A stretch of 58,617 nucleotides of DNA from an uncultured Anaerolineaceae bacterium (GTDB taxonomy: Bacteria > Chloroflexota > Anaerolineae > Aggregatilineales > Phototrophicaceae), in the NCBI GenBank assembly GCA_964434365.1, contig CAYSVE010000001.1, forward strand, positions 4,013 to 62,629, written 5' to 3'. Position 1 is the stretch's first letter; each line of letters begins with the position of its first letter. Positions 29,671-58,617 of the stretch are shown piece by piece. A program made the position numbers and the translations under genes. The notes beneath the pieces were generated by a model, which was given only the letters and a program-made list of their open reading frames with translations, was not told the origin of the DNA and made no database searches.

Positions 29671-29720
29671 GGTGGTGGCGTTGTCGGTTGCTGCAACGAG
29701 ATAAGGTTGCCACGGACGGA

Positions 29721-29876: not shown

Positions 29877-29890
29877 CAGTATCGACTCGC

Positions 29891-37164: not shown

Positions 37165-37260
37165 TAAATAAATATGCCCTTGATGTTTACGGTCTTCATG
37201 GTGCACAAATCAACGCCATCTGCTAGAATACGACCCTGTTCACTGCCACTCGAGGGGGTT

Positions 37261-38919
37261 ATGTCCACGAACACATTTGTGCTGCAAGGTGACCACCTTT
37301 CGTGGCTCGATGCACCGTATCCTCGACAAACCCCAACGCAAACGCACACTGGCCACACCATCACGGCGTGGGTAATTGGCGAACTGCTGACCTATAGAGG
37401 GCAGTCGGAGAACTCACTGGCGCGCCTGGTTGCCGACTTCGAAGCAGACCGTGTGGACCTGCCATCTTTGAACGGGCGTTTCGTGTTGGTCATCAAAACC
37501 GAAGCCGAATGGCAGATCATCACCGATCGCGTGGGGTCGGCCCATGTTTACTACGCGCTGGATGACGACAAAATTTGTGCGGTGGGCAACGATCTCGCAG
37601 CAGTTGCTGCTTTATCCCCCCACGCTGACCTCGACTGGCTGGGGATTGCGTCCTTCTTCACATTTGGGTTTTTCCTGGACGATCGTACCTACTACGATCA
37701 CGTTCGTGTGATGTGGCCCGCCTCGGTTTATCGACTTTCGGCGGCGGGGGTGTTGCTGGGCCATGTACGCTACTGGACGTGGCACCACACCCCGGACACA
37801 ACACGCACGTATGACGAAACACTCGAAATCTACGATTCGCTTTTTCGGCAGGCGGTAGCGCGGTGTGCTACCAGCGAGCGCTTGCTCTTGCCGCTCTCGG
37901 GTGGTCTCGATTCGCGTTCGTTGGCAGCGGTGCTGCCGGGTACCGCACAGACTTTCTCCTACGGATACACCCAGCCATCCGTCGAAACGCGCATCGCATC
38001 GCAGGTGGCGCGGGCGGCTAATCTGCCGTACACCGAATTCGTGATGCCAGCCTACTTGTTCGATCATCTGCCGGAAATTGTACGGGCCTTACACGGCGCG
38101 CAGGATGTCACGCAGGCGCGCCAAACCAGCGTGTTCGAGTGGATGCAAGCGCAGGGCGAGGTGGTGCTGACGGGACTGTGGGGCGATGTGTGGTGCGACC
38201 AGATGGGCCTCGCCGATGGCCTGCCCGCTGGCTACGACTTCGAGGCGTACGCCTTCAAAAAGTTGGCGAAGCGCGGGCACGACTGGCTGCTAGACAATGT
38301 CGTCGCGCAGCATCTGCCCAACGCCTGCGATGTACTGAAGCAGCACCTCGCCGATGGCATCGCGGAGTTCGCATCCATCGTCGATGACGACTTTCGCCTG
38401 AAGGCCTACAAGACCTCACGCTGGGCGTTCCGCTGGTCCAACGCCAGTTTGCGCGGCCATGCGATGGGCGCTGTGCCCCGAATCCCATACTACGATGTCG
38501 ACCTGATCGACTTTTTTTTGACGGTGCCCACCGCCTATGTGCGCGACCGACGCCTGCAAATCGATCATCTGAAGCGCTACGCACCGGCCCTGGCACAGGT
38601 CGCGTGGCAGCAGACCCGCAGTAGCTTGTTCACGGAGCAGTTTATCGACGCGCGCCGGTTTGCAGCAATCGCCCTCAACAAGCTCCAGCGGATGTTGCTT
38701 TCGGTGCCAAGTTACCAGCGCAACTGGGAGGTGCAGTTCTTTGCACTGGGCGGGCGCGAGCGGCTCACCGAGAGCCTGGGCGATCTGTCGGCGTTTGGGG
38801 TTCGGCAGGGGGCGGTCGAGGGGCTGCTGGCAGACCTATACACCAACCCGAACGCGCACAACGGCTACAGCGCGTCGCTTTTGTTGACGTTCGCCGCGTG
38901 GATGGAAACCAGAGCATAG
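37261..38919 (+). CDS. Asparagine synthetase B-family protein lacking the N-terminal Cys nucleophile
   Basis: The start was moved to ATG 37261 (RBS gaggggg). It has the PP-loop SGGLDSRS, begins MSTNTF rather than MCG, and is 552 aa long. Confidence 0.85.
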   Translation: MSTNTFVLQGDHLSWLDAPYPRQTPTQTHTGHTITAWVIGELLTYRGQSENSLARLVADFEADRVDLPSLNGRFVLVIKTEAEWQIITDRVGSAHVYYALDDDKICAVGNDLAAVAALSPHADLDWLGIASFFTFGFFLDDRTYYDHVRVMWPASVYRLSAAGVLLGHVRYWTWHHTPDTTRTYDETLEIYDSLFRQAVARCATSERLLLPLSGGLDSRSLAAVLPGTAQTFSYGYTQPSVETRIASQVARAANLPYTEFVMPAYLFDHLPEIVRALHGAQDVTQARQTSVFEWMQAQGEVVLTGLWGDVWCDQMGLADGLPAGYDFEAYAFKKLAKRGHDWLLDNVVAQHLPNACDVLKQHLADGIAEFASIVDDDFRLKAYKTSRWAFRWSNASLRGHAMGAVPRIPYYDVDLIDFFLTVPTAYVRDRRLQIDHLKRYAPALAQVAWQQTRSSLFTEQFIDARRFAAIALNKLQRMLLSVPSYQRNWEVQFFALGGRERLTESLGDLSAFGVRQGAVEGLLADLYTNPNAHNGYSASLLLTFAAWMETRA

Positions 38920-43054: not shown

Positions 43055-44103
43055 CGAATCCATCCTCGACGGTACTCATCGTGGGCAATTTCATGTCTCG
43101 GTATAAGGGCACGCGTGGTGTCTGCGAAGACCTTGCAGACCGCCTCATGGGGCGCGGCTGGACGACCATCGATACGTCGAGCCGGAAAAACGCTCTCGCC
43201 AAGCTGGCCGATATGCTATGGACGACCTATCGGCATAAGGGGCGCTACGACGTCGCGCATGTAGAAGTCTACAGCGGGCGGGCGTTCATCTGGGCGGAGG
43301 CGACCTGCTGGTTGTTGCGCCGGCTGGGGAAGCCGTATGTGCTCACGCTGCACGGTGGCAACCTGCCATCCTTCGCGTCGCGGAATCCGGCCCGGATGCG
43401 TCGGTTGCTAGCGACGGCGGCTTACATCACCACGCCATCGCGCTATTTGTACGATACGATGCAGCCCTACGCCGAGAACCTGCGTGTGCTGCCGAATGCC
43501 CTCGATCTGTCGGCGTATACGTTTGTGCAGCGCACCGCCGCCACGCCGAAGCTGGTATGGCTACGCGCATTTGCCGAGGTGTACAATGTCACGCTGGCTG
43601 CGGAGGTTGTGGCGCGGCTGAAGGATGACTACCCGACACTTCAACTGTATATGATAGGGCCAGACAAACAAGATGGCAGCCTGGAGGCGTTCCAGGCGCG
43701 CGTGGAAGCCCTCGACATCGGTGAGCACATCACGATTGTTGGGCGGGTGCCGAAGGAAGCGGTGCCGACGTGGATGAACAAAGGGGATGTTTTCCTTAAC
43801 ACTACCAACTTCGACAACACGCCCGTAAGCGTGATGGAAGCAATGGCCGCCGGGTTGTGTGTGGTAAGCACCGATGCGGGTGGGTTGCCGTATCTGCTCG
43901 ACGACGGTGAGGACGCTTTGCTGGTACCGGTAGGCGATGCTGACGCGATGGCCGGTGCGGTGCGTCGTATTTTGGAAGACCCGGCTCTCGCGGAAACGTT
44001 ATCGAGGAAGGCCCGTGCCCGCGCCGAGCGCTTCGATTGGGCGTCGGTGCTGCCACAGTGGGAAGCGATACTGGTGGATATGTTGAAGGAGAACGTGTCA
44101 TGA
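43051..44103 (+). CDS. GT4 family glycosyltransferase
   Basis: 4-nt overlap with the previous gene; motif NTPVSVMEAMAAGLCVVSTDAGGLPYLL. Confidence 0.85.
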   Translation: MTNPSSTVLIVGNFMSRYKGTRGVCEDLADRLMGRGWTTIDTSSRKNALAKLADMLWTTYRHKGRYDVAHVEVYSGRAFIWAEATCWLLRRLGKPYVLTLHGGNLPSFASRNPARMRRLLATAAYITTPSRYLYDTMQPYAENLRVLPNALDLSAYTFVQRTAATPKLVWLRAFAEVYNVTLAAEVVARLKDDYPTLQLYMIGPDKQDGSLEAFQARVEALDIGEHITIVGRVPKEAVPTWMNKGDVFLNTTNFDNTPVSVMEAMAAGLCVVSTDAGGLPYLLDDGEDALLVPVGDADAMAGAVRRILEDPALAETLSRKARARAERFDWASVLPQWEAILVDMLKENVS

Positions 44104-45461
44104 GCGAAGTTCGAAGTTTGCCTGTGTGGTGGGTGCGTAACATTATTTTCCCGCTCTCCGATTTGCTCACAAAGCAGGCGATGATGCAGCGGCTGCGCTT
44201 CCTTGAGGAGGCGCAATGGTGGGACCGCGAACGGCTGCACGCGATGCGCGATGAACTCCTGCAAACGGCTATCCACGAGGCCTACGAGACATCCTTCTAC
44301 CGCCAGTTGATGGACGACGCAGGCGTTCGCTCCGCCGATATCCGCACACCGGAAGACCTCACCAAGCTGCCCGTCGTCACCAAGGATATGTTACGCGAGG
44401 GCAACCCCCGCCGCGAGACAGGCCGCAAGCTTTATGCCAAGCACACCTCCGGTTCCACGGGCAAGCCCTTCCGCGTGTGGGAGGACCACGTCACGGCGGG
44501 GTGGTTCCGCGCCTCGACGATGCTCAACTTCGAGTGGACGGGCTGGCAACCCGGTGTCCCGTACTTGCAGAGCGGCATCAACTTTCCACGCCGCTTCGAC
44601 CGTCGGGTGAAGGATAGTTTGCTGAATTGCCACTACTTTTCCTCATACGATTTAACCGACGAAAACCTGGACCAGATGCTCCAGGCTATCGACAAGCATA
44701 AACTCCAATACGCTTTTGGGTATCCCAGCGGTATGTATTTCCTCGCAAAGCGTGCCAGGGCACTGGGTTGGAACCAGCCCCTGAAGGCAATTTGCACCTG
44801 GGGAGATACCCTATTCCCGACCTATCAGCGGACAATCGAATCGGTGTTTGGGGCACCTGTTTATAACAAGTACGGTTGCGCCGAGGGGATGGAGATCGCG
44901 TCGCAGTGTGGCGATGTGATGCTGTTGAACACGCTCGATGTGATCGTCGAGTACGTCGATGATGATGGGCAACCGGTACCCTACGGCGAGTACGGGAATA
45001 TTTTGGTAACGCGGTTGCACGCGGGGGCTTTTCCGTTTGTGCGCTATCGCCTGGGTGACCTTGGCGTGCGCGCCGAGCCTGCCCCCGCCCCCGAAGGACG
45101 TGGCTTCGATGTATTTGGGCCGATTCGTGGGCGCATTACCGACAATGTCGTAACACCGGGTGGCAACCGGCTTATCGTGCACTTTTTCACTGGGGTGCTG
45201 GAGTATTTTACCGAGATCGATTCTTTCCAGATCGTGCAGAGTGAACCCGACCGTATCGTGTTGAATGTGGTGCCTGCTGAGGGCTTCGATAGCACTGTGG
45301 CGGCGCGCATGGTGCAAGCCCTACAGGATAAAGGGGCCGATATTCAAATCGATGTCGAAGCCGTATCTTCTATTCCATTGACGAAGGGCGGCAAGCATCG
45401 CTTTGTCATCAACCATTTGGAGGGCATGGCGGTCTCGATGGAAGCGGACGATCGCGCGTAG
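44100..45461 (+). CDS. Phenylacetate-CoA ligase / CapK / F390-synthetase-like adenylate-forming enzyme
   Basis: The start was moved to ATG 44100 (ATGA overlap with the previous stop). It has the AMP-binding motif HTSGSTGKPF and a C-terminal KGGKHRFV. Confidence 0.8.
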   Translation: MSEVRSLPVWWVRNIIFPLSDLLTKQAMMQRLRFLEEAQWWDRERLHAMRDELLQTAIHEAYETSFYRQLMDDAGVRSADIRTPEDLTKLPVVTKDMLREGNPRRETGRKLYAKHTSGSTGKPFRVWEDHVTAGWFRASTMLNFEWTGWQPGVPYLQSGINFPRRFDRRVKDSLLNCHYFSSYDLTDENLDQMLQAIDKHKLQYAFGYPSGMYFLAKRARALGWNQPLKAICTWGDTLFPTYQRTIESVFGAPVYNKYGCAEGMEIASQCGDVMLLNTLDVIVEYVDDDGQPVPYGEYGNILVTRLHAGAFPFVRYRLGDLGVRAEPAPAPEGRGFDVFGPIRGRITDNVVTPGGNRLIVHFFTGVLEYFTEIDSFQIVQSEPDRIVLNVVPAEGFDSTVAARMVQALQDKGADIQIDVEAVSSIPLTKGGKHRFVINHLEGMAVSMEADDRA

Positions 45462-45516: not shown

Positions 45517-46374
45517 TTGACGGAAACCCAGCCCGGTTTGCAATACCGTTTGAAGATTCGTGCCCGCCTGATGTATGGCATGATGACGAGTTCGCTGCGT
45601 ATACTACCGAATTTCCTGGTTATCGGGGTGGAAAAAGGCGGGACGACATCGCTATTCCGTTATCTCGTTAAACACCCGAACGTCTTACCCGCAGCCAAGA
45701 AGGAAATCCACTATTTCTCACACGTCTACAATGTGGGGTATCACACCTGGGGTTGGTATCGGGGGCACTTCCCACTGAAGATTACCCGAGCGATGCACCC
45801 CCACCAACCGGCCACCGTCGGTGAGGCCTCAGCGAACTACATCTCGCACCCGCACGCGCCGCAGCGCGTCGCCGCCATGCTGCCAGGGGTCAAGATCATC
45901 GCGCTGCTTCGCAACCCCATCGACCGGGCGTATTCGCAGTATCAACACAAGGTGCGCCAGGGGTTGGAGGATCTGAGCTTCGAAGAGGCGATTCGCAAGG
46001 AGCCGGGGCGGATGGCAGGTGAGTGGGACCGCATGATGAACGACCCCAGCTATTACAGCGCTGCGTATCACTATCATGCTTATGTGCAGCGTGGGCAATA
46101 TGCCGAGCAGCTCGAACGGTGGTTCGCACAGTTGCCCCGCGAGCAGTTTTTGGTCCTCCGTAGCGAGGATTTGTTCGAGCGGCCCCGTGAAATTTATGCC
46201 GATGTGCTGGACTTCCTCGGGTTGCCTGCCTGGGACCCGGTGGACTTTAAGCCCTACCTCAAGGCCACCTATACCGAGATGCCCGCAGACTTACGCGACG
46301 AACTGGGTGCGCACTTCCAACCCCACAATCAGCGGCTGTATACCCTGCTGAACGGTAATATGGGTTGGGACTAA
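45517..46374 (+). CDS. Sulfotransferase
   Basis: 5'-PSB loop IGVEKGGTTSLF and 3'-PB LLRNPIDRAYSQY. The start is uncertain (TTG 45517 or a downstream ATG). Confidence 0.85.
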   Translation: MTETQPGLQYRLKIRARLMYGMMTSSLRILPNFLVIGVEKGGTTSLFRYLVKHPNVLPAAKKEIHYFSHVYNVGYHTWGWYRGHFPLKITRAMHPHQPATVGEASANYISHPHAPQRVAAMLPGVKIIALLRNPIDRAYSQYQHKVRQGLEDLSFEEAIRKEPGRMAGEWDRMMNDPSYYSAAYHYHAYVQRGQYAEQLERWFAQLPREQFLVLRSEDLFERPREIYADVLDFLGLPAWDPVDFKPYLKATYTEMPADLRDELGAHFQPHNQRLYTLLNGNMGWD

Positions 46375-47173: not shown

Positions 47174-47275
47174 GGGCGGCGGCTAGCCATCGTCCAGGTT
47201 GCACTGCGCATTGTGGACCCAATTTCTGTTCAGTACACTTTAGGCGCGCGAAAGACGGTAATTGCGAGGCAGACA

Positions 47276-47959
47276 ATGAGCACAACACAAACACAGGCGA
47301 AGAACCATCAGCCAGTCGTGAAACGCAGCCCGCAAGTCAAGCGGGTGTACTGGCGGATGAGGAACCAGCTTCATCGATTTCTGGAGCACCACCAATACAA
47401 CTTTGTCTACATTCACATCAACAAAACGGGTGGCCGTAGCATAGAAACCGCGCTGGGCTTGCTCTCGGTCGACCATCGAACGGCCTTGCAGAAGCGAAAC
47501 GACATGGGGGCCGCTGCCTGGGAGCAAAAGTTCAAGTTCGCCTTCGTCCGTAACCCGTGGGATCGCGTGGTATCGCACTATGCGTACCGCATCAAAACCA
47601 ATCGGTTGGGCCTTGCAGAAGCGAATCTTGACTTTAAAGCGTGGCTGAAGCTGGCCTACCAGGACCAAGACCGCGCGTTTTTCGACCAGCCCAAGTTTTT
47701 TATGCCGCAGTTCGAGTGGCTATCGGATGAAAATGGGCAACTCATCGTGGACTACGTGGGCCGGTTCGAGACACTCAACCAAGACTTCGCCCATGTGTGC
47801 GAACAAATCGGTCGTGACGTCGAGCTACCACATGTGAATAAATCGAACCGAAGCCACTACAGTAGCTACTACGATGACGAGTCCATTGCGCTCGTCGGCG
47901 AATTATTCGCCAAGGACATCGAGCACTTTGGCTACACCTTCGAAACGCCCAACGCATAG
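47276..47959 (+). CDS. Sulfotransferase family 2-like protein
   Basis: The start was moved to ATG 47276. It has YIHINKTGGRSIE (P-loop-like) and FAFVRNPWDRVVSHY, as in carbohydrate sulfotransferase-2 type enzymes. Confidence 0.7.
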   Translation: MSTTQTQAKNHQPVVKRSPQVKRVYWRMRNQLHRFLEHHQYNFVYIHINKTGGRSIETALGLLSVDHRTALQKRNDMGAAAWEQKFKFAFVRNPWDRVVSHYAYRIKTNRLGLAEANLDFKAWLKLAYQDQDRAFFDQPKFFMPQFEWLSDENGQLIVDYVGRFETLNQDFAHVCEQIGRDVELPHVNKSNRSHYSSYYDDESIALVGELFAKDIEHFGYTFETPNA

Positions 47960-48038: not shown

Positions 48039-49178
48039 ATGGCGTCTTCGAAACCCGCCAAAATTCTGTTTACCATTCCTAACTTCATCACGGCGGGTTC
48101 TGGCCTGTTGTTGTTTAGCGTGGTGCGGTTGCTCGACCGCGATCGCTACGACCCCACGATTGCGGTTCTGGAGAAGGGGGGGCGCCTGGAAGCAGAGATC
48201 GAGGCGGAAAATATTCCGATCATCGAATTGCCCTTCACGTTGAATCCGCGCCCATTGTGGAATTTACCCACGCGGGCCTGGCAGGTAGCCCAGCCCTTTC
48301 GCCCCTATCAGTTCGATCTCTGGCATTCCTTCCACTACTCCGCAGACTACACCGAGCCGATCATCGCGCGCCTGGCCGGGGCAAAAGCCTGGATTTACAC
48401 CAAGAAGAATATGAACTGGGTGAACCGGGCGAACCGGGCGTGGCTGGTGCGGTCGTTTTTGGCGTCGCGCATCGTTGCCGATAACTCGACTATGATGGAA
48501 ACGTTCTTCGACAACTGGTGGGCGCGCGGCAAAACGGTGCTCATCGAGCACAGTGTGGACGTGGAAAAATACAACCCGCACACCGAACCCAGCCTCGACG
48601 TGCGCCAACAGCTTCACCTCTCGCCAGATGATTTCCTGATTGGCGCGGTGGCCCATGTGCTCCCTGTGAAGGGGTACCGCACCTTGATTCGGTCGATAGC
48701 GCATTTGCCGTCGTCGGCGCATCTGGTCATCGCCGGTAGCCTGGATAATGAGGCGTACGTCGCCGAGTTGCACGCGCTCATCGATGAACTACAGTTGGCC
48801 GAGCGTGTTCACTTTTTGGGCCGCATCGGTGGGGTGCCTCAACTACACGCCGAACTCGATGCTTACGTGCTCGCGACGAATGGCCACGGGCGCATGGAAG
48901 GTTGCCCGGTCGCGTTGTTGGAGGCGCTGTCCTGCGGGACGCCGTCGGTGGCGACCGATATTCCAGGCTCGAAGGATATTATCGTCGACGGCGAAAGTGG
49001 GTTGCTGGTGCCGCCCGAAGACCCCGAGGCGATGGCGCAGGCCCTCATGCGCCTATACAACGATGAGCAGCTCCGCCGCCAGATGGGGCCAAAGGGCCGC
49101 GAGCGTATTCTGGCGCACTATCGTGTGGAGCGAGAGGCAAACGAACTTCAGGCCTTGTACGCCGATATCCTTCGGTAG
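48039..49178 (+). CDS. GT4 family glycosyltransferase
   Basis: Motif RMEGCPVALLEALSCGTPSVATDIPGSKDII; length 379 aa. Confidence 0.85.
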   Translation: MASSKPAKILFTIPNFITAGSGLLLFSVVRLLDRDRYDPTIAVLEKGGRLEAEIEAENIPIIELPFTLNPRPLWNLPTRAWQVAQPFRPYQFDLWHSFHYSADYTEPIIARLAGAKAWIYTKKNMNWVNRANRAWLVRSFLASRIVADNSTMMETFFDNWWARGKTVLIEHSVDVEKYNPHTEPSLDVRQQLHLSPDDFLIGAVAHVLPVKGYRTLIRSIAHLPSSAHLVIAGSLDNEAYVAELHALIDELQLAERVHFLGRIGGVPQLHAELDAYVLATNGHGRMEGCPVALLEALSCGTPSVATDIPGSKDIIVDGESGLLVPPEDPEAMAQALMRLYNDEQLRRQMGPKGRERILAHYRVEREANELQALYADILR

Positions 49179-49188
49179 GGCAGTCGCC

Positions 49189-50175
49189 TTAGGTGGGGTT
49201 GCCGTCACCGTTGAGGTAGGGCGTCAGGGTTGGACCGAATGCGTCCACGATGCGCTCGATTTTGTCGATTTGTTCGGTGGCGAGGGACTCGCGCCACTTC
49301 TCGATCCGTCCCTTGCGATCGAAGTTATTCCGGTTCTGGAAGACGGTACCGCTGGGGCGCTTGAGGATAGCCCCTTTTTCATCCACCGTTACCGCGTATC
49401 CCTCGCCCAGGTAGGCCAGCAAGTCGTCGAAGGTGGTGATGGGGTCCAGCACGAGGCTATCGAAGGATAGCACGTGTGCGGGCAGCACGTTCTGCTCGAT
49501 TTGCCGGAGCGGAACGTAGTAGTTGATGCACCAGCCAACGACCATCCGCGAGAAGGGGTCTTCATCGCAGCGATGGATGAGGTCGGTGTAATCGGCCAGC
49601 CAATCGACGACAAGCGCGTCCTGGCCCATAAACAGCTTTAAGTAGCCCGGCTCCTGCATGTAGCGTGTCCAGCCCTGCCGCAACATCGATTCGATCGTTG
49701 CGCCCGGATTCCGCACGATCAACACGACTTTGCAGCCGAAGGTATGGGCCAGCCAGGCCAGCATCAGGTTGCCGTGGATCATTTTGACGATGGTGTTGGT
49801 CCACCAGATGGCACGGCTATCGTGTCGGGTACGGCGAACGTGGGTGTTGCCGACAATTTTCCCCTTGAGGGCCATGTGGAAAAAAGCTTCGAGGTCCGTG
49901 TCGGTTTGGTCTGTACGGCGATAGGGGTACGCGTAATGCAGGTCGCCGGTAAAGGTGTGGGGGTGTAAAAATGGCCGCGCCGCGCTCACACGATGATGCA
50001 GCGGTTCGAACACGGTGCGGCGATGGGTGACACCCGCCAGCGATTGCGCCAGGTAGGTTGTTCCGCTACGGCCAATGCCAGAGATGACGATGGCATCGGA
50101 GGCCTGCGCGATGCTGCCCTGCAACGCCTCGGCAGCGTTGATAATGAGGGGCTTGAATGAGTTCCTAAGTTGCAT
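49189..50175 (-). CDS. Sulfotransferase family protein
   Basis: N-terminal ISGIGRSGTTYLAQSL and LIVRNPGATIESML. It overlaps the upstream gene by 11 nt. Confidence 0.65.
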   Translation of the reverse strand: MQLRNSFKPLIINAAEALQGSIAQASDAIVISGIGRSGTTYLAQSLAGVTHRRTVFEPLHHRVSAARPFLHPHTFTGDLHYAYPYRRTDQTDTDLEAFFHMALKGKIVGNTHVRRTRHDSRAIWWTNTIVKMIHGNLMLAWLAHTFGCKVVLIVRNPGATIESMLRQGWTRYMQEPGYLKLFMGQDALVVDWLADYTDLIHRCDEDPFSRMVVGWCINYYVPLRQIEQNVLPAHVLSFDSLVLDPITTFDDLLAYLGEGYAVTVDEKGAILKRPSGTVFQNRNNFDRKGRIEKWRESLATEQIDKIERIVDAFGPTLTPYLNGDGNPT

Positions 50176-51337
50176 CGGCTTCGTCGTTTGTGTAATAGCG
50201 CGCGAAGAACGGGTCCTCTTCGCTTTCGGCCAGCAGGTTTTCCAGGCGTTCCACCGAGGAGTACGGCCCGAGAATATCGGGCGTTTCGCGCAGCATCATC
50301 AGGTAAATTTCGGTCGTGAGGTATGGGGTAATGTGCCACGCATCCAGGAAGTGTTCGTCGCCAAGGGGTAGGGTAGCCGGGTCGGTAAAGTCGAAGAGTG
50401 GGAAGCCGTACTGCTCGAAGATGGCCGCCGTGAAGTCTGGTACATCTGCGAGGTACGTATGGTCGCCCGAGGTCGTCAGCCACTCGTAACTGAGGTTGGA
50501 GAAGGGCGGTAAGCACCCGACGACCTGCATCTCCAGCTCGACTGCGCGGTCGAGGATCGCTTCCACCACGGCGGCATTTTCCTCGGCAATGCGGTCTCCA
50601 TTGACCCACTGCTGCGCCCGCGCCTCGAACCGCCTGCGATGAAATTGGCTACGCTCCTCGATCGTCACGGTCTCCAGTCGTCTACGTGCCCGTACCGACT
50701 GAAAGATTTCGCCGTTGTTCAGCACAGCAGTGTCGCCGATCATCGCACGTAGCCCTACTGCCTTGAAGCCGAACTGCGGTTCGGTGCCCGATAGGATGTT
50801 GCTCCCGCGCGTGTCGACAAAACGCATCATCTCCATGCTCATATCCACCGAGCGTTGCAGCATCGTCTGGAAGTCGATATCGCCTATGTACGGTGGTTCG
50901 GTATTGACGAAGCTATTCGGCGAGAAGAAGCTCTGATCGAGGCACCACAGCATCACATCGGGGGCATCGCTCGCGTCCAGGTTATCCAGGTAATACTGCA
51001 CTTCCTCGTGGTCGAAGGAGGCGATCCAGGCGTTGTACATTTCGTAGGGTTCATCGATTAAATACGGGCCGTAGGAATAGATACGCGACGACCCCATAAA
51101 CAGCACATCGGGCTGCACGTGCTGGATGGACCGCAACCGAAAGGCGAACGCCTCATCACGGTTTGCTTCGAAGGCCCCGTACACCACGGGTTCGTCGGTA
51201 TCCAGCATCTGTATTGCCACAGAAATCGGAAGCGCATCGCCAATGTAAACTCCCAGGCCCACGATGAGCGCCAGCACTGCAACCAGCGGCGTGACAAACA
51301 AAAGCAGAGTTTTTAGGAATTGCTTGGGTGTGTTCAA
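50165..51337 (-). CDS. Membrane-anchored hypothetical protein, possible DltD/AlgX-like partner of the MBOAT
   Basis: It has an N-terminal TM segment, sits directly downstream of the MBOAT gene, and has FMGSSR and D..WH patterns suggestive of an SGNH-type fold. This is a weak assignment. Confidence 0.6.
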   Translation of the reverse strand: MNTPKQFLKTLLLFVTPLVAVLALIVGLGVYIGDALPISVAIQMLDTDEPVVYGAFEANRDEAFAFRLRSIQHVQPDVLFMGSSRIYSYGPYLIDEPYEMYNAWIASFDHEEVQYYLDNLDASDAPDVMLWCLDQSFFSPNSFVNTEPPYIGDIDFQTMLQRSVDMSMEMMRFVDTRGSNILSGTEPQFGFKAVGLRAMIGDTAVLNNGEIFQSVRARRRLETVTIEERSQFHRRRFEARAQQWVNGDRIAEENAAVVEAILDRAVELEMQVVGCLPPFSNLSYEWLTTSGDHTYLADVPDFTAAIFEQYGFPLFDFTDPATLPLGDEHFLDAWHITPYLTTEIYLMMLRETPDILGPYSSVERLENLLAESEEDPFFARYYTNDEADAT

Positions 51338-51360
51338 GGGTTCACGCTATCTTCCGACTA

Positions 51361-52815
51361 TTAGAACTGGAAGTAGATAAAGTCGGCCTCAGTTGTGCTG
51401 ACCGAGTAGATAATCAACAGAGATGCGACATAATACGCGGCCCAGCGCAGTTGCCGTGTTTTCGTCTCCAGGCTCCAGAAGGGGCGCGGCTGTTGGGCAG
51501 CCCAGTCTGCAACAAACAAAACGGTGATCGTCGCGATGGCCATGCCTAGCTCCAACCAGGCTGCACCGTAGGGTGCAATACCCCCAAACGGTTCGGCGAT
51601 TTGGAAGCCCGAGGAGAAGTTGAAGAGGTGGGTGACGATGTAGAAGCTATCCTGAATGTTGTTCGCGCGGAAGAAAATCCACCCAATGCAAACCAGCACG
51701 AACGTAAACACCGTCGCGAGCCACGGCGGCGCCGTGCGGGTGTCTGCCTGGCCCCCACGCACGTAGCGGTCCCAAACAATTTCGCCGACGATTAAAAACC
51801 CGTGGATCGTGCCCCACAGCACAAACGTCCACGCCGCACCGTGCCACAAGCCGCTGATCACGAACACGATCATCAAGTTGCGCAGCGTTGCCGAGAACGA
51901 CACCCGGCTGCCGCCCAGCGGGATGTAAACGTAGTCGCGGAACCATGTAGACAGCGAAATGTGCCACCGACGCCAGAATTCGCGGATGGACCGCGAAAAA
52001 TAGGGCTGGCGGAAGTTTTGCATCAGGTCGAAGCCCATCGTCCGCGCGGTGCCGATGGCGATATCGGAGTAGCCGGAAAAGTCGCAGTAGATTTGGATGG
52101 CAAAAAAGAACGTCGCCAGCATCAGGTGTACGCCGGTATAGTCCTCGACGTTGTTGTAAACCGTGTTGACGTAAGCAGCGAGGCGGTCTGCAATGACGAC
52201 TTTTTTGAACGCCCCCCACAAAATGAGCCGCAAGCCAGAGACCATCCGCTCATCGTTGAAGGTGTGTTGTTGCTTGAACTGGCCGAGCATGTTCGAAGCG
52301 CGTTCGATGGGGCCTGCAACCAACTGTGGGAAGAACGCAATGTACGTCGCGAAACGGCCCAGGTGACGCTCCGCAGCCACATTCCCACGATACACATCGA
52401 TGGTGTAGGCCATCGATTGGAAGGTGTAAAAGGAAATCCCCACCGGCAACAACAGGTTGTGGGTTTGGGCGGCGGTATCCGGGCCTAAGCTGACGAGGAC
52501 GCTATTTGCCGATTGGCTAAAGAAGTTGAAGTACTTGAAGACGAACAATGTGCCCAGGTTCACGCATATGCTCAGCAGCAAAAACGATCGTCGGGTCGTT
52601 TGTTGTTCTTCGGGGGTGCTTTCGATGCGTATGGCTGCGATGTAGTCCACGATCGTCGAAAAAACGATCAACAGGATGTAGTACACATTCCAGTAGGCGT
52701 AGAAGAAGTAACTCGCGACGAGCAGCAGAATCCAACGGAACCGGAACGGCAATAAGAAATACGATGAAAGCACAATGATGAAAAACACCACGAATTCATC
52801 GCTAATGAATGACAT
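51361..52815 (-). CDS. MBOAT family O-acyltransferase (AlgI/DltB-like)
   Basis: 484 aa and polytopic, with the signature FWRRWHISLSTWFRDYVYIPLGG containing the catalytic His. Confidence 0.9.
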   Translation of the reverse strand: MSFISDEFVVFFIIVLSSYFLLPFRFRWILLLVASYFFYAYWNVYYILLIVFSTIVDYIAAIRIESTPEEQQTTRRSFLLLSICVNLGTLFVFKYFNFFSQSANSVLVSLGPDTAAQTHNLLLPVGISFYTFQSMAYTIDVYRGNVAAERHLGRFATYIAFFPQLVAGPIERASNMLGQFKQQHTFNDERMVSGLRLILWGAFKKVVIADRLAAYVNTVYNNVEDYTGVHLMLATFFFAIQIYCDFSGYSDIAIGTARTMGFDLMQNFRQPYFSRSIREFWRRWHISLSTWFRDYVYIPLGGSRVSFSATLRNLMIVFVISGLWHGAAWTFVLWGTIHGFLIVGEIVWDRYVRGGQADTRTAPPWLATVFTFVLVCIGWIFFRANNIQDSFYIVTHLFNFSSGFQIAEPFGGIAPYGAAWLELGMAIATITVLFVADWAAQQPRPFWSLETKTRQLRWAAYYVASLLIIYSVSTTEADFIYFQF

Positions 52816-53114
52816 ATACCTGCCCCAGTTTGTAGCCTGCTTACCGAAGCGAATCTATCGTTTGTCGTGGGTGCGTTGAGAGTGTCGAGGGGACGCAGGT
52901 ACGAATTAGCCGTGCCCATCTGCCATACGCCCCCCCTTGGGCAACCCGCAGTGACGATCGTCTGTCGTCCGATATTCGCTGTTGTTTCCGGCGGAAGTGC
53001 GTCACGGCGCGCGTGAGCGCCGGTACCATCGCCGCAGAAATTTGGAATCAGCGCAAGTTTACAGCAGCTTGCCAGAAAGCACCATGCTTTATTGGGTGTA
53101 GCATAATGTGCCTA

Positions 53115-54788
53115 TTACGGGGTCCGTACGATTTGCAGGACGCGTAGTGCGCTGAGCATGCCGGGGTACGCTTCGCGCCGCCGTAGGCGAATGGTAGCCC
53201 GCAGCCGTGGCAGGTCTACCCACGGGTGGCGGGCGGCATCGCCGGTAAGCGCGAGTAGGGTGGTCGGCGGGGTAGGGTGGTTGCGATACGTGTGTGGCGT
53301 CTCCGATTTAACCGGCTCCCACACGAAGGGCAGGTAAGGCTCCATCGCCTTGCGGTAGAGGAAGCGCCGCATCCCGTAAAACAGATGAAACGCCTGCGGC
53401 ACCGTATACACGAACTCCATCAGCGGGCGGTCGAGCAGGGGGTAAGCGTAGTGGATGCCATGGGGGCGCGCGGCGGTCGCCCAGGCTTCGATGCGCCGGG
53501 TGAGGTGCTCTGCGAAGTACAACCGGGCCTGCGACTGCGGGCCGCCCGCAACCGTGCGCGTGAGGGGGGCCGGGCGGTAGGTGCGCCCACTTGTTCGAGC
53601 CGCCAATTCTGGTGAGATGAAGGTGGCATCGGGGCGGGCGCGTATCGCGCGGTGCATGACGAGGCGCAGCAATGGATTCGGGAGCAGGGGATAGGCGCCT
53701 TCCAGCAAGATGAGTTGCGCCGCAGTTCGCTTGCGGAGACCACCTAATGCGACCGGCAAATCGTGCCAGCGCCCGCCCCGCAGCATCCCCGCGAGCACGC
53801 CGCGCCCGTTGTAACTGACGGTTTCGTCGCCACCCCACCCAGAGAGGATCGTTTGAACCCCATCGGCGGCGGCCTGCCGCAGAACAGGTAACTCGCGGCC
53901 TATGGCGTCCATCGGTTGGACGCTCGGGTCAATGCGGAGCATCGTCATGTGGTCCGCTTGCGTGTAACCGATGAACTGGCACGTCTGGCCGAGCATTTCG
54001 GTAACCGCACCGATGCGCCCGTACTCGTTCTCATCGGTGTCTACAGGGCGTGACCATGAGTAGAAGTGCGTTCGGTTGGTAGCGTAGGGGGCAGCGAGCA
54101 CGGCAATCGAGGACGAATCGATACCGCCGCTGAGGTGAAAGCCCACCTGGCCGGCCATGGGCACCCGATACGCGACTGCCTGTTGGGTCAGTTCTTGCAC
54201 ACGTTGGACACAATCGTCCAGCGACAGGCTGCGATCTTCGGGATAATCTTGTGGGTCCCAGTAGCGCTGCAAACGATGCCCGTGCGGGGTAATCGTGAGG
54301 GTGTGGCCGGGCCGCAAACGACGGACATTCTCGAAGAAGGTGCGCTCGCCGGGTTGGTATTCGTTGAAGTGGTGGACAAGGTATGTCGCGACCTCCACCT
54401 CATCGATGACAGCGGGCACCGCGTCGAGTGCGATGAGCGCCGGAATATCGCTCGCAATGGCGGCCATCTGTGGGGTGAGGTAGTAGTACAGGGGCCGCGC
54501 GCCGATGTGATCGCGCGCGCAGAACAGCCACCCCCGCGCGGCATCCCATATCGCAAAGGCATAATCGCCGATGAGATGACGTGGACAATCGGTTCCCCAG
54601 CGTGCGTACGCCTGTGCGATGAGCGTCGTATCGTCGGTGTGAGGGGGCAGTTGCAGCCGCCGATGCAGGGCTTCACGGTTGTCGATGCGTGCGTCTGCCG
54701 TAATACACACTGCGCCGAGTGTTTGGGCGTTGGGTCCCAGGGCGGTGGGCTGCTCGGCGCGCGGAAAAACGCCGAAAATGCTAGTCAT
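53115..54788 (-). CDS. Asparagine-synthetase-like lasso cyclase (C protein) homologue
   Basis: Begins MTSIFGVF (Thr where AsnB has Cys2), has the PP-loop LSGGIDSSS, and its ATG overlaps the B2 stop (ATGACTAG). Confidence 0.8.
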   Translation of the reverse strand: MTSIFGVFPRAEQPTALGPNAQTLGAVCITADARIDNREALHRRLQLPPHTDDTTLIAQAYARWGTDCPRHLIGDYAFAIWDAARGWLFCARDHIGARPLYYYLTPQMAAIASDIPALIALDAVPAVIDEVEVATYLVHHFNEYQPGERTFFENVRRLRPGHTLTITPHGHRLQRYWDPQDYPEDRSLSLDDCVQRVQELTQQAVAYRVPMAGQVGFHLSGGIDSSSIAVLAAPYATNRTHFYSWSRPVDTDENEYGRIGAVTEMLGQTCQFIGYTQADHMTMLRIDPSVQPMDAIGRELPVLRQAAADGVQTILSGWGGDETVSYNGRGVLAGMLRGGRWHDLPVALGGLRKRTAAQLILLEGAYPLLPNPLLRLVMHRAIRARPDATFISPELAARTSGRTYRPAPLTRTVAGGPQSQARLYFAEHLTRRIEAWATAARPHGIHYAYPLLDRPLMEFVYTVPQAFHLFYGMRRFLYRKAMEPYLPFVWEPVKSETPHTYRNHPTPPTTLLALTGDAARHPWVDLPRLRATIRLRRREAYPGMLSALRVLQIVRTP

Positions 54789-55209
54789 TGGCAAAGCTGG
54801 CAATCACATGATACTGGTGTGCCACGCTTCCGCCGGTGAGGATGCGCGGCCCGCAGCGAACCCACGCGTGGGCCTCCAGTGTTTCGTGTTTGCGCACACC
54901 CAGGTACAACGTGCTCGCGATGCGGTAGCGCCGCAGCATCCACTGCGCTGCGACAGCCTGCTCGAGGCAGGTGGGTTGCCACGGCAGCCGGGCACGATGC
55001 ACCGCGTAGCTCACTGCGTCCACTGTCGGCAGGTCGTCGGCAGCGACGGTGTGGCCTGTTTCGTGTTGGAGTTGGCCCAGGTAGGGTGCCCACCAGCGGA
55101 AGGGGATCAGGTGCAGCCCGCGCACGACGACCATGTAGACTGCTGCTCGCACCGTTAGCCGACGGACCCACGACCACCGCGCCCTAAACAACGTCGATAA
55201 GCTGTTCAT
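54781..55209 (-). CDS. Lasso peptide biosynthesis B2 protein (transglutaminase-like protease)
   Basis: The start was moved to ATG 55209 (MNSLSTLFRARW). It has PTCLEQAVAAQWML...LEAHAWV, which is the Cys/His signature of B2 proteins. Confidence 0.8.
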   Translation of the reverse strand: MNSLSTLFRARWSWVRRLTVRAAVYMVVVRGLHLIPFRWWAPYLGQLQHETGHTVAADDLPTVDAVSYAVHRARLPWQPTCLEQAVAAQWMLRRYRIASTLYLGVRKHETLEAHAWVRCGPRILTGGSVAHQYHVIASFAND

Positions 55210-55465
55210 CTTGCAGTTGGCCCAGAAATTCCAGAACATCCTGCTGGCAGGTGGGTTCGTCGATGTCGAATTCCTCAAGCAGGGCCTGGCACACCTCGCG
55301 GATTTGAATGGGGCTTTCGATGAGTGTCCAAATCCGGCTGCCGACGATCTCGGTACCGTAATATTTGCCCCGCTCGATGCTGAGCATCACGACATCGCCG
55401 TCCACCTCGCGGGTGATGAGCTGAGCACTACGCACGATGGTCTGGTCCAACGTGAGATGGGTCAT
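55184..55465 (-). CDS. PqqD-family RiPP recognition element (lasso B1)
   Basis: The start was moved to ATG 55465 (ATGA overlap with the sulfotransferase stop). It has ...REVDGDVVMLSIERGKYYGTEIVGSRIW..., the PqqD pattern. It is 93 aa long. Confidence 0.8.
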   Translation of the reverse strand: MTHLTLDQTIVRSAQLITREVDGDVVMLSIERGKYYGTEIVGSRIWTLIESPIQIREVCQALLEEFDIDEPTCQQDVLEFLGQLQDEQLIDVV

Positions 55466-56310
55466 GGGGTGTCCACCACTTCCTCGTAACCATAAAAGCA
55501 CATCATAGGGCCGAGCGCCGTTGTAATCCGCACGATTTGTTCGTTGCTCAGTACGGCGTGCCCCTGGCCTACCTGCCCACTGTTGAAAAAAAACTCGCTG
55601 GACGCAGGCCGTTCGCTGAAACCATGCGCGGCTTCCTGTTGCTTAAGCTGCTCGAAGCTAGAAAACGCGATCGCTCGGTCTACCTGTTCCGCATCGGGTT
55701 CGATGCCCACGAAGCGAAGGGCTTCGGTGAATGTTGCGTGGGGGGCGGTGTGCATATCCTCGTAGCGCACCACATGAACCGGCAAACCGGAGTCTTCCAC
55801 CCAGCTTTTCACATGTTTATCCCACGAGTACAAACGCTGTTGCAATTGGGGGGTGTGTCGGTGTGGCCGCACACCGAGGACGTAATCCTCATTGAGCAAG
55901 GTGTTAATGGCGACATCGAGCGAGGACCCATTATGGTTGGCCATCGATGGCACGATATCCAGCGGGTTGCGAATAATGTAGATAACCCCGGCGGTCGCCT
56001 CGGCGGGGATGAGGGGGGCACCGTTGGGTAGGTGATGATAGGCATCGTGTATTTTGCAAAAGGGTAAAAACTCCCCGGCATCGGCAAAGCGCCGATACAC
56101 CGCCGGGCGATACGCGTTTGCCTCGGCGGGGGTTAAATTTGCCGATTCGACGCCGGTGTATTCATCGAAAATCTGGCGAGAACTCGCGATGGGGGTGCGC
56201 TCCAACGCATTGATGTTCACCGGGGTGTCGGCGTTGCGCCAGTAGTTGTTCAAAAAAATGCGCAACCACGTATTGCCAGACTTCGGGTAGGACGCCAGCC
56301 AGGTAATCAT
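55462..56310 (-). CDS. Sulfotransferase
   Basis: ASYPKSGNTWLR 5'-PSB loop and IIRNPLDIVPS 3'-PB motif. It has an ATGA overlap with the kinase stop. Confidence 0.85.
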   Translation of the reverse strand: MITWLASYPKSGNTWLRIFLNNYWRNADTPVNINALERTPIASSRQIFDEYTGVESANLTPAEANAYRPAVYRRFADAGEFLPFCKIHDAYHHLPNGAPLIPAEATAGVIYIIRNPLDIVPSMANHNGSSLDVAINTLLNEDYVLGVRPHRHTPQLQQRLYSWDKHVKSWVEDSGLPVHVVRYEDMHTAPHATFTEALRFVGIEPDAEQVDRAIAFSSFEQLKQQEAAHGFSERPASSEFFFNSGQVGQGHAVLSNEQIVRITTALGPMMCFYGYEEVVDTP

Positions 56311-57203
56311 ACGAAATCCGCTTCCACCGCGTCCAGCAGGTCACTCAGCATAAACGGTTGTATGGGCCGCTCTACACGTCGATACAGCACATCCCCGATG
56401 GCCCGCGTGATACCCATCATCACCGGGCGTTCCATTTCTTCGGCAAAGCGCGCCCGGTAAATGCGATTGCGCAGCGACAGCACCTTCGTCAGCCCCGTGA
56501 TGGTGGTCACCTTGATCGTTTTCGTGTTGGTGGGCAGCAGGGCATACACCCGGTAGAGCGGTTGCGCTTGGGTCTCGAAGGCGGTTACGGGGAGGCTGTA
56601 TTTTTCCAGTTGAGGCCGGACGCGTTGCAGGTTTTCGGTGTCCATCGCCATCTCACCGAGGGCCTCCGCCCACAGCTTGAGCTGCGGGTAACCGGGCACG
56701 ACGAAGGCGTTTCCGGTTTCATCGAAGGTGATGACGCTGATGTCATCGCTTAGCAGGGGGTAGCCCCGCTCGATGAACCCCGCCGCCGTCGTCGATTTGC
56801 CCGCGCCCGAAGCCCCGGCGAAGATCACAGCGCCGTGTGGGGTGGCGATGCTGCTGCCGTGGATGGGAAGTAGGCCCCGCTGATGCAACAACGCCCCAAA
56901 TGCCGACCCCATCAGAAATAGCCGCACGCTGTCTTTATCGACCAAGGGCATAGCGCGTTGGATGGCGATGTGGCGTCCATTGTGGACGTGGTACCGGGCG
57001 ATGCCGTCTACGCGTAGCAGAAATTCGTTTGCCGAAATATCGTACAGGACCCCCCTGGCTGTTGGGGCCGCGAGGGTCGATGGCACCACCCCTTCATCGA
57101 TCGTTACATCGGCCTGGGCCGATGTCGACGAAATGAACGCCGGTAACGGGATGCTCGAAGCAATCGTGAGGTTGAAGGCAGTGTAGCGATGAGGCGTGTT
57201 CAC
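56307..57203 (-). CDS. HprK-related kinase (lasso-precursor kinase type)
   Basis: GASGAGKSTTA P-loop followed by RGYPLLSDD, as in the HPr kinase C-terminal domain. The GTG start lies 3 nt after the DprE2-like stop. Confidence 0.8.
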   Translation of the reverse strand: MNTPHRYTAFNLTIASSIPLPAFISSTSAQADVTIDEGVVPSTLAAPTARGVLYDISANEFLLRVDGIARYHVHNGRHIAIQRAMPLVDKDSVRLFLMGSAFGALLHQRGLLPIHGSSIATPHGAVIFAGASGAGKSTTAAGFIERGYPLLSDDISVITFDETGNAFVVPGYPQLKLWAEALGEMAMDTENLQRVRPQLEKYSLPVTAFETQAQPLYRVYALLPTNTKTIKVTTITGLTKVLSLRNRIYRARFAEEMERPVMMGITRAIGDVLYRRVERPIQPFMLSDLLDAVEADFV

Positions 57204-57206
57204 AAC

Positions 57207-57944
57207 CTAGAGCTTCAGCCTCTTAAAGACAGGTTCGGGGATAAGGCGAATGATCCACATGATGTAACGCCAGAAGAACGGCACGTAAATCACATCGCGC
57301 CCGGCCTTCATCGCATCATAGATCGACTTGCCAACATCTGCCGCGCTGGCGAAAAGCGCGTTCTTGGGCAGGTGAGCCGTCATCGGGGTATCGACGAAAC
57401 CGGGCTTCACCGTGAGGACCTGCACCCCGGCTTTGGCTAGCCGGTTGCGCACCCCGCTCACGAATGCCGTGCGTGCGGCCATCGCCGTGCCGTAGACGTA
57501 ATTGCTGCCCCGGCCCCGGTCGCCCGCGACCGACGAAATCACCGTGATGACGCCGCGCCGCTGGGCTTCGAACTCGTTCGCGGCGATCGTCAGCAGCGAG
57601 GCCACACTCATGAAGTTCGTGTCGAGCGATTGCTTCGTTGCGGCGTAGGTGGCTTGCGCCGCCGCCTGATCCGTCAGATCGCCGTGCGCGATGATGAGAT
57701 TATCGAGTCCATCGAGCGCAGTTTTGGCCGCATCGAACATCGCCGCGTGTGCGTCGACATCGTTGGCATCCATCACATGAATGTGGGCGGCCTTCGCCCC
57801 ACGCGCCAGCAAATCGTCGCGCACAGCGTTGAGTTTGGCCTCGGTGCGGCCCACGAGGAAGAACGCGCCACCATCTGCGGCGAACAGGCGGGCTGTTTCG
57901 TGGGCGATGGCCGAACTCGCCCCGACAATGACAAATTTGAGCAT
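57207..57944 (-). CDS. DprE2-like SDR (decaprenylphospho-2-keto-ribose reductase homologue)
   Basis: The start was moved to ATG 57944 (MLKFVIVGASSAIA). ISSVAGDRGRGSNYVYG and the C-terminal FWRYIMWIIRLIPEPVFKRLKL resemble my memory of Mtb Rv3791. Lys of YxxxK is replaced by Met. Confidence 0.75.
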   Translation of the reverse strand: MLKFVIVGASSAIAHETARLFAADGGAFFLVGRTEAKLNAVRDDLLARGAKAAHIHVMDANDVDAHAAMFDAAKTALDGLDNLIIAHGDLTDQAAAQATYAATKQSLDTNFMSVASLLTIAANEFEAQRRGVITVISSVAGDRGRGSNYVYGTAMAARTAFVSGVRNRLAKAGVQVLTVKPGFVDTPMTAHLPKNALFASAADVGKSIYDAMKAGRDVIYVPFFWRYIMWIIRLIPEPVFKRLKL

Positions 57945-57946
57945 GG

Positions 57947-58617
57947 TTACCCCATGACCCGCCGCCAGAACGACGACGAGAACTTCGGATCGATAAACTT
58001 GGAAAACTCCTCCCAGCGCGGGTAGCTGCACCGGAAGCCCTCCGGCGACATGCGCGCATCCTTGGCCGGGTAAAGCGCGCCGCCGTTCGCAAACACAATT
58101 TCGTCCAGTTCGTCCAGCAAGCGCAGCGTGGCCGGGCCGTTATACGCGAAATCGAGCGCCAGCGTGACCCCAGGCCGTGGGAAGGACAGCATCCCCGGCG
58201 ACTCGATCTCGCCGAAGGTTTTGAACACCACCAGCGGCGACGCCTGCCCGCTTTCCACGATGCGGCGCAACACCGCCTTGATGGGTGTGTAGGGGGCTTC
58301 GTAGGGCATCACAAACTGGTATTGCAAAAAGCCGCGCTTACCGTAGCCCCGATTCCAGTTGGAAAGCACATCTAATGGATAGAAGAACGGCTCGTAGTGC
58401 GTAACTGCCCGCACCTCGGGGAAAATTTGCTTGCGAAAGTACAACTCGTTGAGAACACGCACCGTGAACGGGTTCAGGGTAAAGTCGGGGAAATCGACCG
58501 GGACCGGGATTTGCGGCAGCGGCTTGGTTTCCTCTGCGCCACCGAGCGGGGGGTCGTAGAAGTCGCCGCGGCCAAATACCCCGCGCCCGAAGGTACGCCC
58601 ACTGGCCGTGCAGTCCA
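57947..58617 (-). CDS. DprE1-like FAD-dependent oxidoreductase, C-terminal part (5' end outside window)
   Basis: The frame is open to the window edge. ...FLQYQFVMPYEA..., PGVTLALDFA and GGALYPAKDARMS match my memory of the DprE1/ALO C-terminal domain. Confidence 0.75.
   Translation of the reverse strand, partial: DCTASGRTFGRGVFGRGDFYDPPLGGAEETKPLPQIPVPVDFPDFTLNPFTVRVLNELYFRKQIFPEVRAVTHYEPFFYPLDVLSNWNRGYGKRGFLQYQFVMPYEAPYTPIKAVLRRIVESGQASPLVVFKTFGEIESPGMLSFPRPGVTLALDFAYNGPATLRLLDELDEIVFANGGALYPAKDARMSPEGFRCSYPRWEEFSKFIDPKFSSSFWRRVMG

Follow-up and report, generated by a model that had tools for sequence, protein, structure and literature searches.

The end of a 58,617-nucleotide stretch of DNA from an uncultured Anaerolineaceae bacterium of the Chloroflexota (assembly GCA_964434365.1, contig CAYSVE010000001.1, positions 4,013 to 62,629; the whole stretch, 58.6 kb in length, is hereafter referred to as the window) carries five genes whose products resemble the maturation enzymes of lasso peptides, a class of ribosomally synthesised peptides that are modified after translation (RiPPs). 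These encode a kinase, a sulfotransferase, a leader-binding protein (B1), a leader peptidase (B2) and a macrolactam cyclase (C), are hereafter uniformly referred to as the cassette, and lie behind a pair of genes for DprE1-like and DprE2-like enzymes. The window ends 1.4 kb upstream of the kinase gene and ~4 kb of the source contig (62,629 nt) lie outside it. A search of metagenome contigs for an exact match to 70 nt of the window end gave none, and exact look-ups of the DprE2-like protein, the sulfotransferase and the kinase returned no record. Seven consecutive minus-strand reading frames run from 58617 down to 53115 in the list of open reading frames (ORFs), and are followed by a gap:

57947..58617, minus strand: DprE1-like protein, C-terminal ~222 aa, cut by the window end; context, probably not a part of the cassette
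57207..57944, minus strand: DprE2-like short-chain dehydrogenase, 245 aa; context
56307..57203, minus strand: HPr-kinase-like (ScmC-family) P-loop kinase, 298 aa (Hpr_kinase_C, PF27840, PF07475)
55462..56310, minus strand: cassette sulfotransferase, 282 aa (Sulfotransfer_1)
55184..55465, minus strand: B1, PqqD-like leader-binding protein (RiPP recognition element, RRE), 93 aa (PF05402, NF033536)
54781..55209, minus strand: B2, transglutaminase-like leader peptidase, ~142 aa from the ATG at 55209 (PF13471, NF033537)
53115..54788, minus strand: C, Asn-synthase-like macrolactam cyclase, 557 aa, without Cys2 (GATase_7 and Asn_synthase)
52816..53114, no strand: 299-nt gap 3' of the cyclase gene, without a precursor (ORF list, sequence and precursor hidden Markov models, HMMs)

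The tight packing of the seven minus-strand genes, as described in the original prediction, was confirmed by reading all six junctions from the sequence. The DprE1-like gene ends in TAA (57949-57947) and is separated by CC from the ATG of the DprE2-like gene at 57944, which in turn ends in TAG (57209-57207) and is followed, after GTT, by the GTG of the kinase gene at 57203; this 3-nt gap places the cassette directly behind the DprE1/DprE2 homologues, as had been claimed. Within the cassette, the kinase TGA overlaps the sulfotransferase ATG in the ATGA of GTATGATT (56310/56307) and the sulfotransferase TGA overlaps the PqqD ATG in the ATGA of CCATGACC (55465/55462). The PqqD stop at 55184 and the B2 ATG at 55209 give an overlap of 26 nt, reduced to 8 nt if B2 begins at the TTG at 55191, and the B2 stop at 54781 and the cyclase ATG at 54788 overlap by 8 nt. 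Co-transcription of the cassette with the DprE pair is likely in view of the 3-nt spacing between the DprE2-like and the kinase genes. A promoter and terminator scan of 49000-58617 returned counts equal to the shuffled expectation and is thus uninformative on transcription units, and Rfam and tRNA scans of the window gave no matches. The motifs quoted earlier for the cassette proteins (GASGAGKST…LLSDD in the kinase, YPKSGNTW and RNPLD in the sulfotransferase, PTCLEQ…HAWV in B2 and SGGIDSS in the cyclase) were each found in the translations.

Comparison with curated family models bears out the claim that this is a true lasso-type maturation cassette, complete with kinase and sulfotransferase: B1 and B2 exceed the cut-offs of lasso models, the cyclase finds its best match, below the cut-off, in a lasso model, and the Sulfotransfer_1 assignment is confirmed. 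B1 matches PF05402 at 66.9 bits (cut-off 23.4, E = 2e-18) and NF033536 (lasso_PqqD_Bac) at 91.1 bits (cut-off 80), and B2 matches PF13471 at 84 bits (E = 9e-24) and NF033537 (lasso_biosyn_B2) at 83.4 bits (cut-off 33), retaining the conserved Cys (PTCLEQ) and His (HAWV). The cyclase comprises GATase_7 and Asn_synthase domains with the PP-loop SGGIDS, and its N-terminus reads MTSIF, in agreement with the reported lack of Cys2. When the columns that are at least 90% conserved in the relatives were examined, the window proteins were found to keep 3/3 of them in B1, 15/17 in B2 and 32/32 in the cyclase, the last counted among the cassette-linked cyclases. The GC content at third codon positions (GC3) of the five cassette genes is 0.68-0.78, like that of the neighbouring genes, and composition gave no evidence of a recent insertion, the GC and GC3 of the cassette resembling those of its neighbours. 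The retention of conserved residues and the GC3 matching that of the window argue against recent import and pseudogenisation, the five cassette reading frames appearing intact and not decaying.

The kinase is an HPr-kinase-like P-loop protein tied to the next cassette gene by the ATGA overlap. It carries the Walker A motif GASGAGKST, has precomputed Pfam matches to PF27840 (ScmC) and PF07475, and does not pass the HprK_rel_A model (TIGR04352; 35.5 bits against a model cut-off of 200). Among 82 relatives, it keeps 43 of the 44 conserved columns, including G130, G135, K136, S137, D153 and D154. A total of 647 kinase homologues were found, the best being only 48% identical. The predicted role of the kinase is phosphorylation of a lasso precursor at its C-terminal Ser, by analogy with the HPr-kinase homologues that phosphorylate the C-terminal Ser of linear lasso precursors of the paeninodin type (PMC8498205).

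The cassette sulfotransferase matches Sulfotransfer_1 (E = 1e-20); among solved structures, Teg14, Teg12 and StaL come closest to it (E = 1e-15 to 1e-7), with the match spanning only ~residues 92-228. These three are tailoring sulfotransferases of glycopeptide antibiotics, and the motifs PKSGNTW and RNPLD, both present in the window protein, mark the binding site for 3'-phosphoadenosine 5'-phosphosulfate (PAPS); the enzyme is presumably PAPS-dependent, like its family. Teg12, Teg14 and StaL resemble the proposed system in tailoring a peptide natural product and differ from it in their substrates, which are non-ribosomal glycopeptide aglycones. No other protein of the cassette family is as conserved as the sulfotransferase, in which 82 columns reach at least 90% conservation; the window copy keeps 74 of these. 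In a tblastn map the window enzyme shares 43-49% identity with most kinase-adjacent sulfotransferases from other phyla, and it shows essentially no resemblance to the five remaining sulfotransferases in the window; it therefore belongs with the cassette rather than with the surrounding glycan locus.

The distribution of the cassette was examined in 80 loci from GTDB species genomes and five places for two kinase homologues (L001-L005), the resulting 85 mapped loci amounting to 82 when three near-duplicates were dropped; three further loci for the nearest kinases were added after the 85-locus map. The order kinase, sulfotransferase, PqqD, B2 and cyclase, or close permutations of it, was observed by tblastn in many lineages, mostly on one strand, including Chloroflexota, Desulfobacterota, Acidobacteriota, Bacteroidota, Planctomycetota, Nitrospirota, cyanobacteria and Entotheonella, and in most of these loci the sulfotransferase gene lies immediately 3' of the kinase gene. 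The gene tables of L001 and L004 show the same order as the window, and L004 additionally has an ATP-binding cassette (ABC) exporter and an NTP_transf_5 gene. The kinase, sulfotransferase, B1, B2 and C genes thus make up, as judged from these maps, a conserved cross-phylum module. The arrangement had been put forward as very unusual, a view that could not be sustained, as the five-gene cassette recurs across phyla and HPr-kinase and sulfotransferase genes in lasso clusters with the same gene content as the window were already flagged by Letzel et al. 2014 (PMC4289311; summarised in PMC8498205). The cluster type has been known bioinformatically since 2014–2016, and the window cassette adds one more member to it. 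No characterised product of such clusters, and no characterised sulfated lasso peptide, was found in the literature searched, in line with the earlier statement that a sulfated lasso peptide is uncharacterised.

The relatives encode a recognisable family of precursor peptides. Their leaders share the motif W-x-x-P-x-[LIV]-x-x-[LI], a Thr is conserved at two or three residues from the cleavage site predicted for them, and a Glu or Asp follows ~8-9 residues into the core, which invariably ends in Ser. Peptides of this kind, such as ...RQPWQTPTLVNLSARRTESGNPYIVED...GS, occur in tandem upstream of the kinase gene or downstream of the cassette, and in an Anaerolineae relative three of them, e.g. 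MSDRREPTAEITRQPWQTPTLVNLSARRTESGNPYIVEDTYTNGSLIYFYGPVATEPGS, lie upstream of the kinase gene. In four loci (L006, L041, L014 and L035) the precursors are found just downstream of the last maturation gene; L006 and L041, which are among the closest relatives of the window (47% kinase identity), have 3 and 6 copies, respectively. Relatives with 2-6 tandem precursors include L001 (1728-2902), L006 (14648-15477), L041 (9732-9962 and 14825-15694) and L009 (2144-2690). Several of the L006 and L041 cores are rich in Cys, with C-C-x-P-S or a similar sequence at their end, pointing to additional disulfides or cross-links.

The residue composition of the cores was also compared between loci, using 68 precursor peptides from L001-L083. 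Tyr is present in 28 of the 53 predicted cores with a kinase-adjacent sulfotransferase and in 2 of the 15 without one (Fisher p = 0.008, uncorrected for relatedness), an enrichment that gives a weak hint of Tyr O-sulfation. Tyr as the sulfation site was left at the level of a hint, about half of the cores from sulfotransferase loci being without Tyr.

A maturation pathway to a phosphorylated and probably sulfated lasso peptide can be proposed on the basis of homology with characterised lasso systems and of the precursors of the relatives. B1 would bind the precursor leader through the W-x-x-P-x-[LIV] motif, the kinase would phosphorylate the invariant C-terminal Ser of the linear precursor, and the sulfotransferase, which resembles Teg12, Teg14 and StaL, would sulfate a hydroxyl group of the core. 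B2 would then cleave the leader after the conserved Thr-x, and the cyclase would link the new N-terminus to the Glu or Asp ~8-9 residues into the core.

The closest characterised parallels are the paeninodin-type clusters (PadeK; ThcoK and SyanK), which share with the window the split B1/B2, the Asn-synthase-like C and the HPr-kinase-like P-loop kinase. The window B1 passes the Bacillus-type lasso PqqD model, and the precursors of the window's relatives end in Ser, the residue that such kinases phosphorylate (PMC8498205). Unlike the paeninodin type, the window has a sulfotransferase gene right after the kinase gene, a Chloroflexota host and no precursor or ABC exporter gene within its limits, and its kinase falls below the Hpr_kinase_C and HprK_rel_A cut-offs. 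The kinase and sulfotransferase clusters among the relatives carry precursors and often an ABC exporter and/or a nucleotidyltransferase, whereas the window copy shows none of these and is wedged between the DprE pair and glycan genes. The pseudomycoidin cluster, with a kinase, a nucleotidyltransferase and a phosphoglycosylated product, is likewise a kinase-bearing lasso cassette; the window, in contrast, has no nucleotidyltransferase and has a sulfotransferase instead. Among the 29 complete relatives, defined by the presence of the four core genes and of no less than 1.5 kb on each side, an NTP_transf_5 gene is present in cis in 12 and an ABC exporter homologue in 13.

The DprE1-like fragment matches the DprE1 model NF053785 with E = 4.6e-46 and 158 bits over model positions 221-436 of 449, the cut-off of 500 applying to the whole protein. 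The DprE2-like protein matches adh_short (E = 8e-32) and the PRK07102 model of short-chain dehydrogenases/reductases (SDRs) at 306.7 bits, above the cut-off of 267, and does not pass the DprE2 equivalog (160.1 bits, E = 7e-47, cut-off 250). The pair resembles the mycobacterial DprE1/DprE2 (decaprenyl-phospho-ribose 2'-epimerase) in consisting of adjacent genes for a flavin adenine dinucleotide (FAD)-dependent oxidase and an SDR reductase, and differs from it in that the SDR is of the PRK07102 type and fails the DprE2 equivalog, and in its Chloroflexota host. DprE enzymes act on a pentose carried by a phosphodiester, and a polyprenyl-phospho-pentose is the presumed substrate of the window pair.

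Chloroflexota proteins of 244-245 aa, among them those of Aggregatilinea lenta, Anaerolineales and Phototrophicales, match the DprE2-like protein at 60-73% identity, which likewise assigns the window to this phylum. In three related Chloroflexota contigs the SDR gene is preceded by a FAD_binding_4 gene of 439-446 aa. The neighbours of the pair differ from contig to contig (a convergent PMT_2 glycosyltransferase gene; a major facilitator superfamily transporter and a sugar kinase; unrelated genes), and none of the three has lasso genes beside it. Conversely, no DprE1, DprE2 or MBOAT match of at least 40 bits was found in the 85 mapped cassette loci, and DprE genes are absent upstream of the cassette in the three nearest kinase relatives as well, 88 loci in all; in those three, the upstream position is taken by a nucleotidyltransferase gene, an intergenic region or a short ORF. 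As the pair stands alone in its relatives and cassette loci have no DprE, the adjacency is most likely positional and not functional, and the proposal that the pair is tied to the cassette is weakened on the same two grounds. The pair (60-73%) is far better conserved than the cassette (at most 48%). On the simplest reading, a patchily distributed cassette has come to lie behind a DprE pair conserved in this lineage of Chloroflexota, possibly sharing its transcript. A PMT_2 (GT-C) glycosyltransferase gene is often found beside the DprE pair in related Chloroflexota (L086:2592-4118; L087:6624-8588), an adjacency consistent with the pair helping to make a polyprenyl-phospho-sugar as donor for glycosylation of the envelope.

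The reading preferred here, to which a probability of roughly 0.68 is assigned, is that of an intact split-B lasso cassette whose precursor lies outside the window and whose position behind the DprE pair is incidental. Several observations weigh against it, foremost those on the precursor. As many as 24 of the 29 complete loci (83%) have at least one precursor in cis, and a six-frame search of the window with two family HMMs found none; the best matches (E = 0.04 and 0.15) were rejected, as they lie in alternative frames of real coding genes and lack the motif. The post-cyclase gap at 52816-53114, the site of the precursors in the closest relatives, is empty, and a 62-aa ORF in it was rejected as a candidate, ending in Arg and having no lasso features. 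Further weight on this side comes from the 3-nt spacing between the DprE2-like and the kinase genes, tighter than an independent transcription unit would predict, from the kinase match to Hpr_kinase_C (25.5 bits, E = 1e-5; cut-off 33.3) and the best cyclase match among the NCBIfam models (lass_lactam_cya, 267.5 bits; cut-off 525), both below their cut-offs, and from the 8 of 82 conserved sulfotransferase columns that deviate, mostly toward the C-terminus (S164D, R243N, W250G, H266L and others). The nearest cassette relatives are, moreover, ~48% identical, too distant for the history of the window copy to be traced.

Motif searches and a generic lasso pattern likewise revealed no precursor in the window, of which only the 1.4 kb filled by the DprE genes lie upstream of the kinase gene; a lasso precursor would be expected to have Thr as the penultimate residue of the leader and Glu or Asp at core position 7-9. 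Neither an ABC exporter nor an NTP_transf_5 gene was detected in the 58.6 kb. The earlier statement that precursor and ABC exporter are absent therefore holds for the window, as tested by HMM, motif and homologue searches. The precursor gene is most likely located in the ~4 kb of contig outside the window or elsewhere in the genome.

These absences can also be explained if the cassette is stranded or repurposed, its precursors having been lost when it came to lie between the DprE pair and the MBOAT genes and its enzymes now decaying or acting on another substrate, such as another protein or peptide or a component of a sulfated glycan. Such a fate would account for the absence of any precursor from the 58.6 kb, even from the customary downstream site, for the missing exporter and NTP_transf_5 genes, for the glycan genes all around and for the off-consensus columns of the sulfotransferase. 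It is nevertheless considered unlikely, as the five frames are intact and keep nearly all conserved residues, with a GC3 typical of expressed genes in the window, and as B1, B2 and C are dedicated to peptides with a leader; we know of no case of these three acting on non-peptide substrates. The absences themselves are unexceptional among the complete relatives, five of the 29 having no detectable precursor in cis and 16 no ABC exporter, and ~4 kb of contig and the remaining genome lie outside the window. For recruitment to a non-RiPP substrate, which had been suggested earlier, no positive evidence emerged, and the relatives carry obvious precursors in cis.

A participation of the DprE pair in the peptide pathway was also considered, in which a pentose would be attached to the phosphate that the kinase places on the C-terminal Ser, as hexoses are in pseudomycoidin, and then epimerised by the pair at C2 (ribose to arabinose) to give a phospho-arabinosylated, sulfated lasso peptide. 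The gaps of 2 and 3 nt and the single strand from DprE1 to the cyclase would suit such a scheme, as would the action of DprE enzymes on a pentose held in a phosphodiester, and precursors upstream of DprE1, if there, would put the pair inside the cluster. A phosphoglycosylated lasso peptide, pseudomycoidin, does exist (PMC8498205). However, none of the 88 cassette loci has DprE homologues, the pair is conserved on its own in the three Chloroflexota contigs and at 60-73% as against at most 48% for the cassette, the window has no NTP_transf_5 nucleotidyltransferase to attach the sugar, and general Pfam and NCBIfam scans of the window, none of them aimed at a phosphoribosyltransferase, did not reveal one; the scheme is thus regarded as very improbable. 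Least probable of all, and contradicted by the evidence from synteny and precursors, is that the locus is not of the lasso type, the Asn-synthase homologue being an amidotransferase that acts on polysaccharide, of the XrtA/PEP-CTERM type, next to which unrelated genes of the glycan locus lie by chance. The cyclase does match the exopolysaccharide (EPS) amidotransferase model eps_aminotran_1 at 137.5 bits and does not reach the lasso cyclase cut-off, and a second divergent Asn-synthase-like gene is present in the glycan locus (37174-38919); yet its score with the lasso cyclase model is roughly double (267.5 bits), B1 and B2 are above lasso-specific curated cut-offs, and the five-gene order occurs with lasso-type precursors in dozens of genomes without surrounding glycan genes. 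The most far-reaching forms of these schemes, namely a functional chaining with precursors upstream of DprE1 and a DprE-remodelled pentose on the phosphorylated C-terminal Ser of a sulfated lasso peptide, or a takeover by the glycan pathway with a non-RiPP substrate, are jointly given only a slight chance. The preferred reading of an intact cassette with its precursor outside the window is retained.

The remainder of the window is taken up by a large glycan locus with glycosyltransferases (GTs) of the GT2, GT4 and GT47 families, sugar-nucleotide enzymes, FkbM methyltransferases, an MBOAT protein and an adenylating enzyme. Family scans identified six sulfotransferases in the window, the cassette one included, in accordance with the description of the surroundings as a sulfotransferase-rich glycan locus. 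The five others lie at 5330-6235, 15744-16613, 45517-46374, 47213-47959 and 49189-50175, and are accompanied by an exostosin-like GT47 (16633-17685), a UDP-glucose dehydrogenase and a Polysacc_synt_2 protein. The region of sulfotransferases, glycosyltransferases and FkbM proteins looks like a locus for a heavily sulfated and methylated polysaccharide. The genes that follow the post-cyclase gap are:

51361-52815, minus strand: MBOAT/DltB-like gene (Pfam MBOAT, E = 2e-32; DltB model, 169.9 bits, below the cut-off of 375)
50165-51337, minus strand: 390-aa protein without a family or solved-structure match
49189-50175, minus strand: sulfotransferase (Sulfotransfer_1/3)

An adenylate-forming enzyme of the PaaK / DVU_1553 type is encoded at 44037-45461 on the plus strand and, with the MBOAT and the 390-aa proteins (50165-52815), may form a module for O-acylation of the glycan. 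The second Asn-synthase-like gene (37174-38919) encodes 581 aa with no glutaminase domain detected, and was rejected as a second cyclase, giving only weak generic matches to Asn synthase, EPS amidotransferase and macrolactam cyclase models. A 501-aa ORF at 29640-31145 on the minus strand has no family match and a GC3 of 0.44, compared with 0.58-0.84 (mostly ~0.7) elsewhere, and is probably not a real gene in that frame or strand. Within and between the glycan regions are found genes for a tyrosine recombinase of the phage-integrase family (6245-7225), an HNH endonuclease (22254-22607) and ParA/ParB (35173-36730), and the window may derive from a plasmid-like or rearranging region.

By itself the window matters little, as it presents another copy, with its precursor not in view, of a cluster type that has already been flagged, and chance in gene order best explains its position behind the DprE genes. 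The cassette family is more useful than the window, combining a conserved pair of kinase and sulfotransferase genes with a recognisable W-x-x-P leader and a C-terminal Ser in the precursors, and the pair is conserved in at least seven phyla or major lineages. The multi-precursor relatives (e.g. L041, L006 and L001) would be better starting points for expression than the window, and a sulfated lasso peptide, if true, would represent a new modification for the class.

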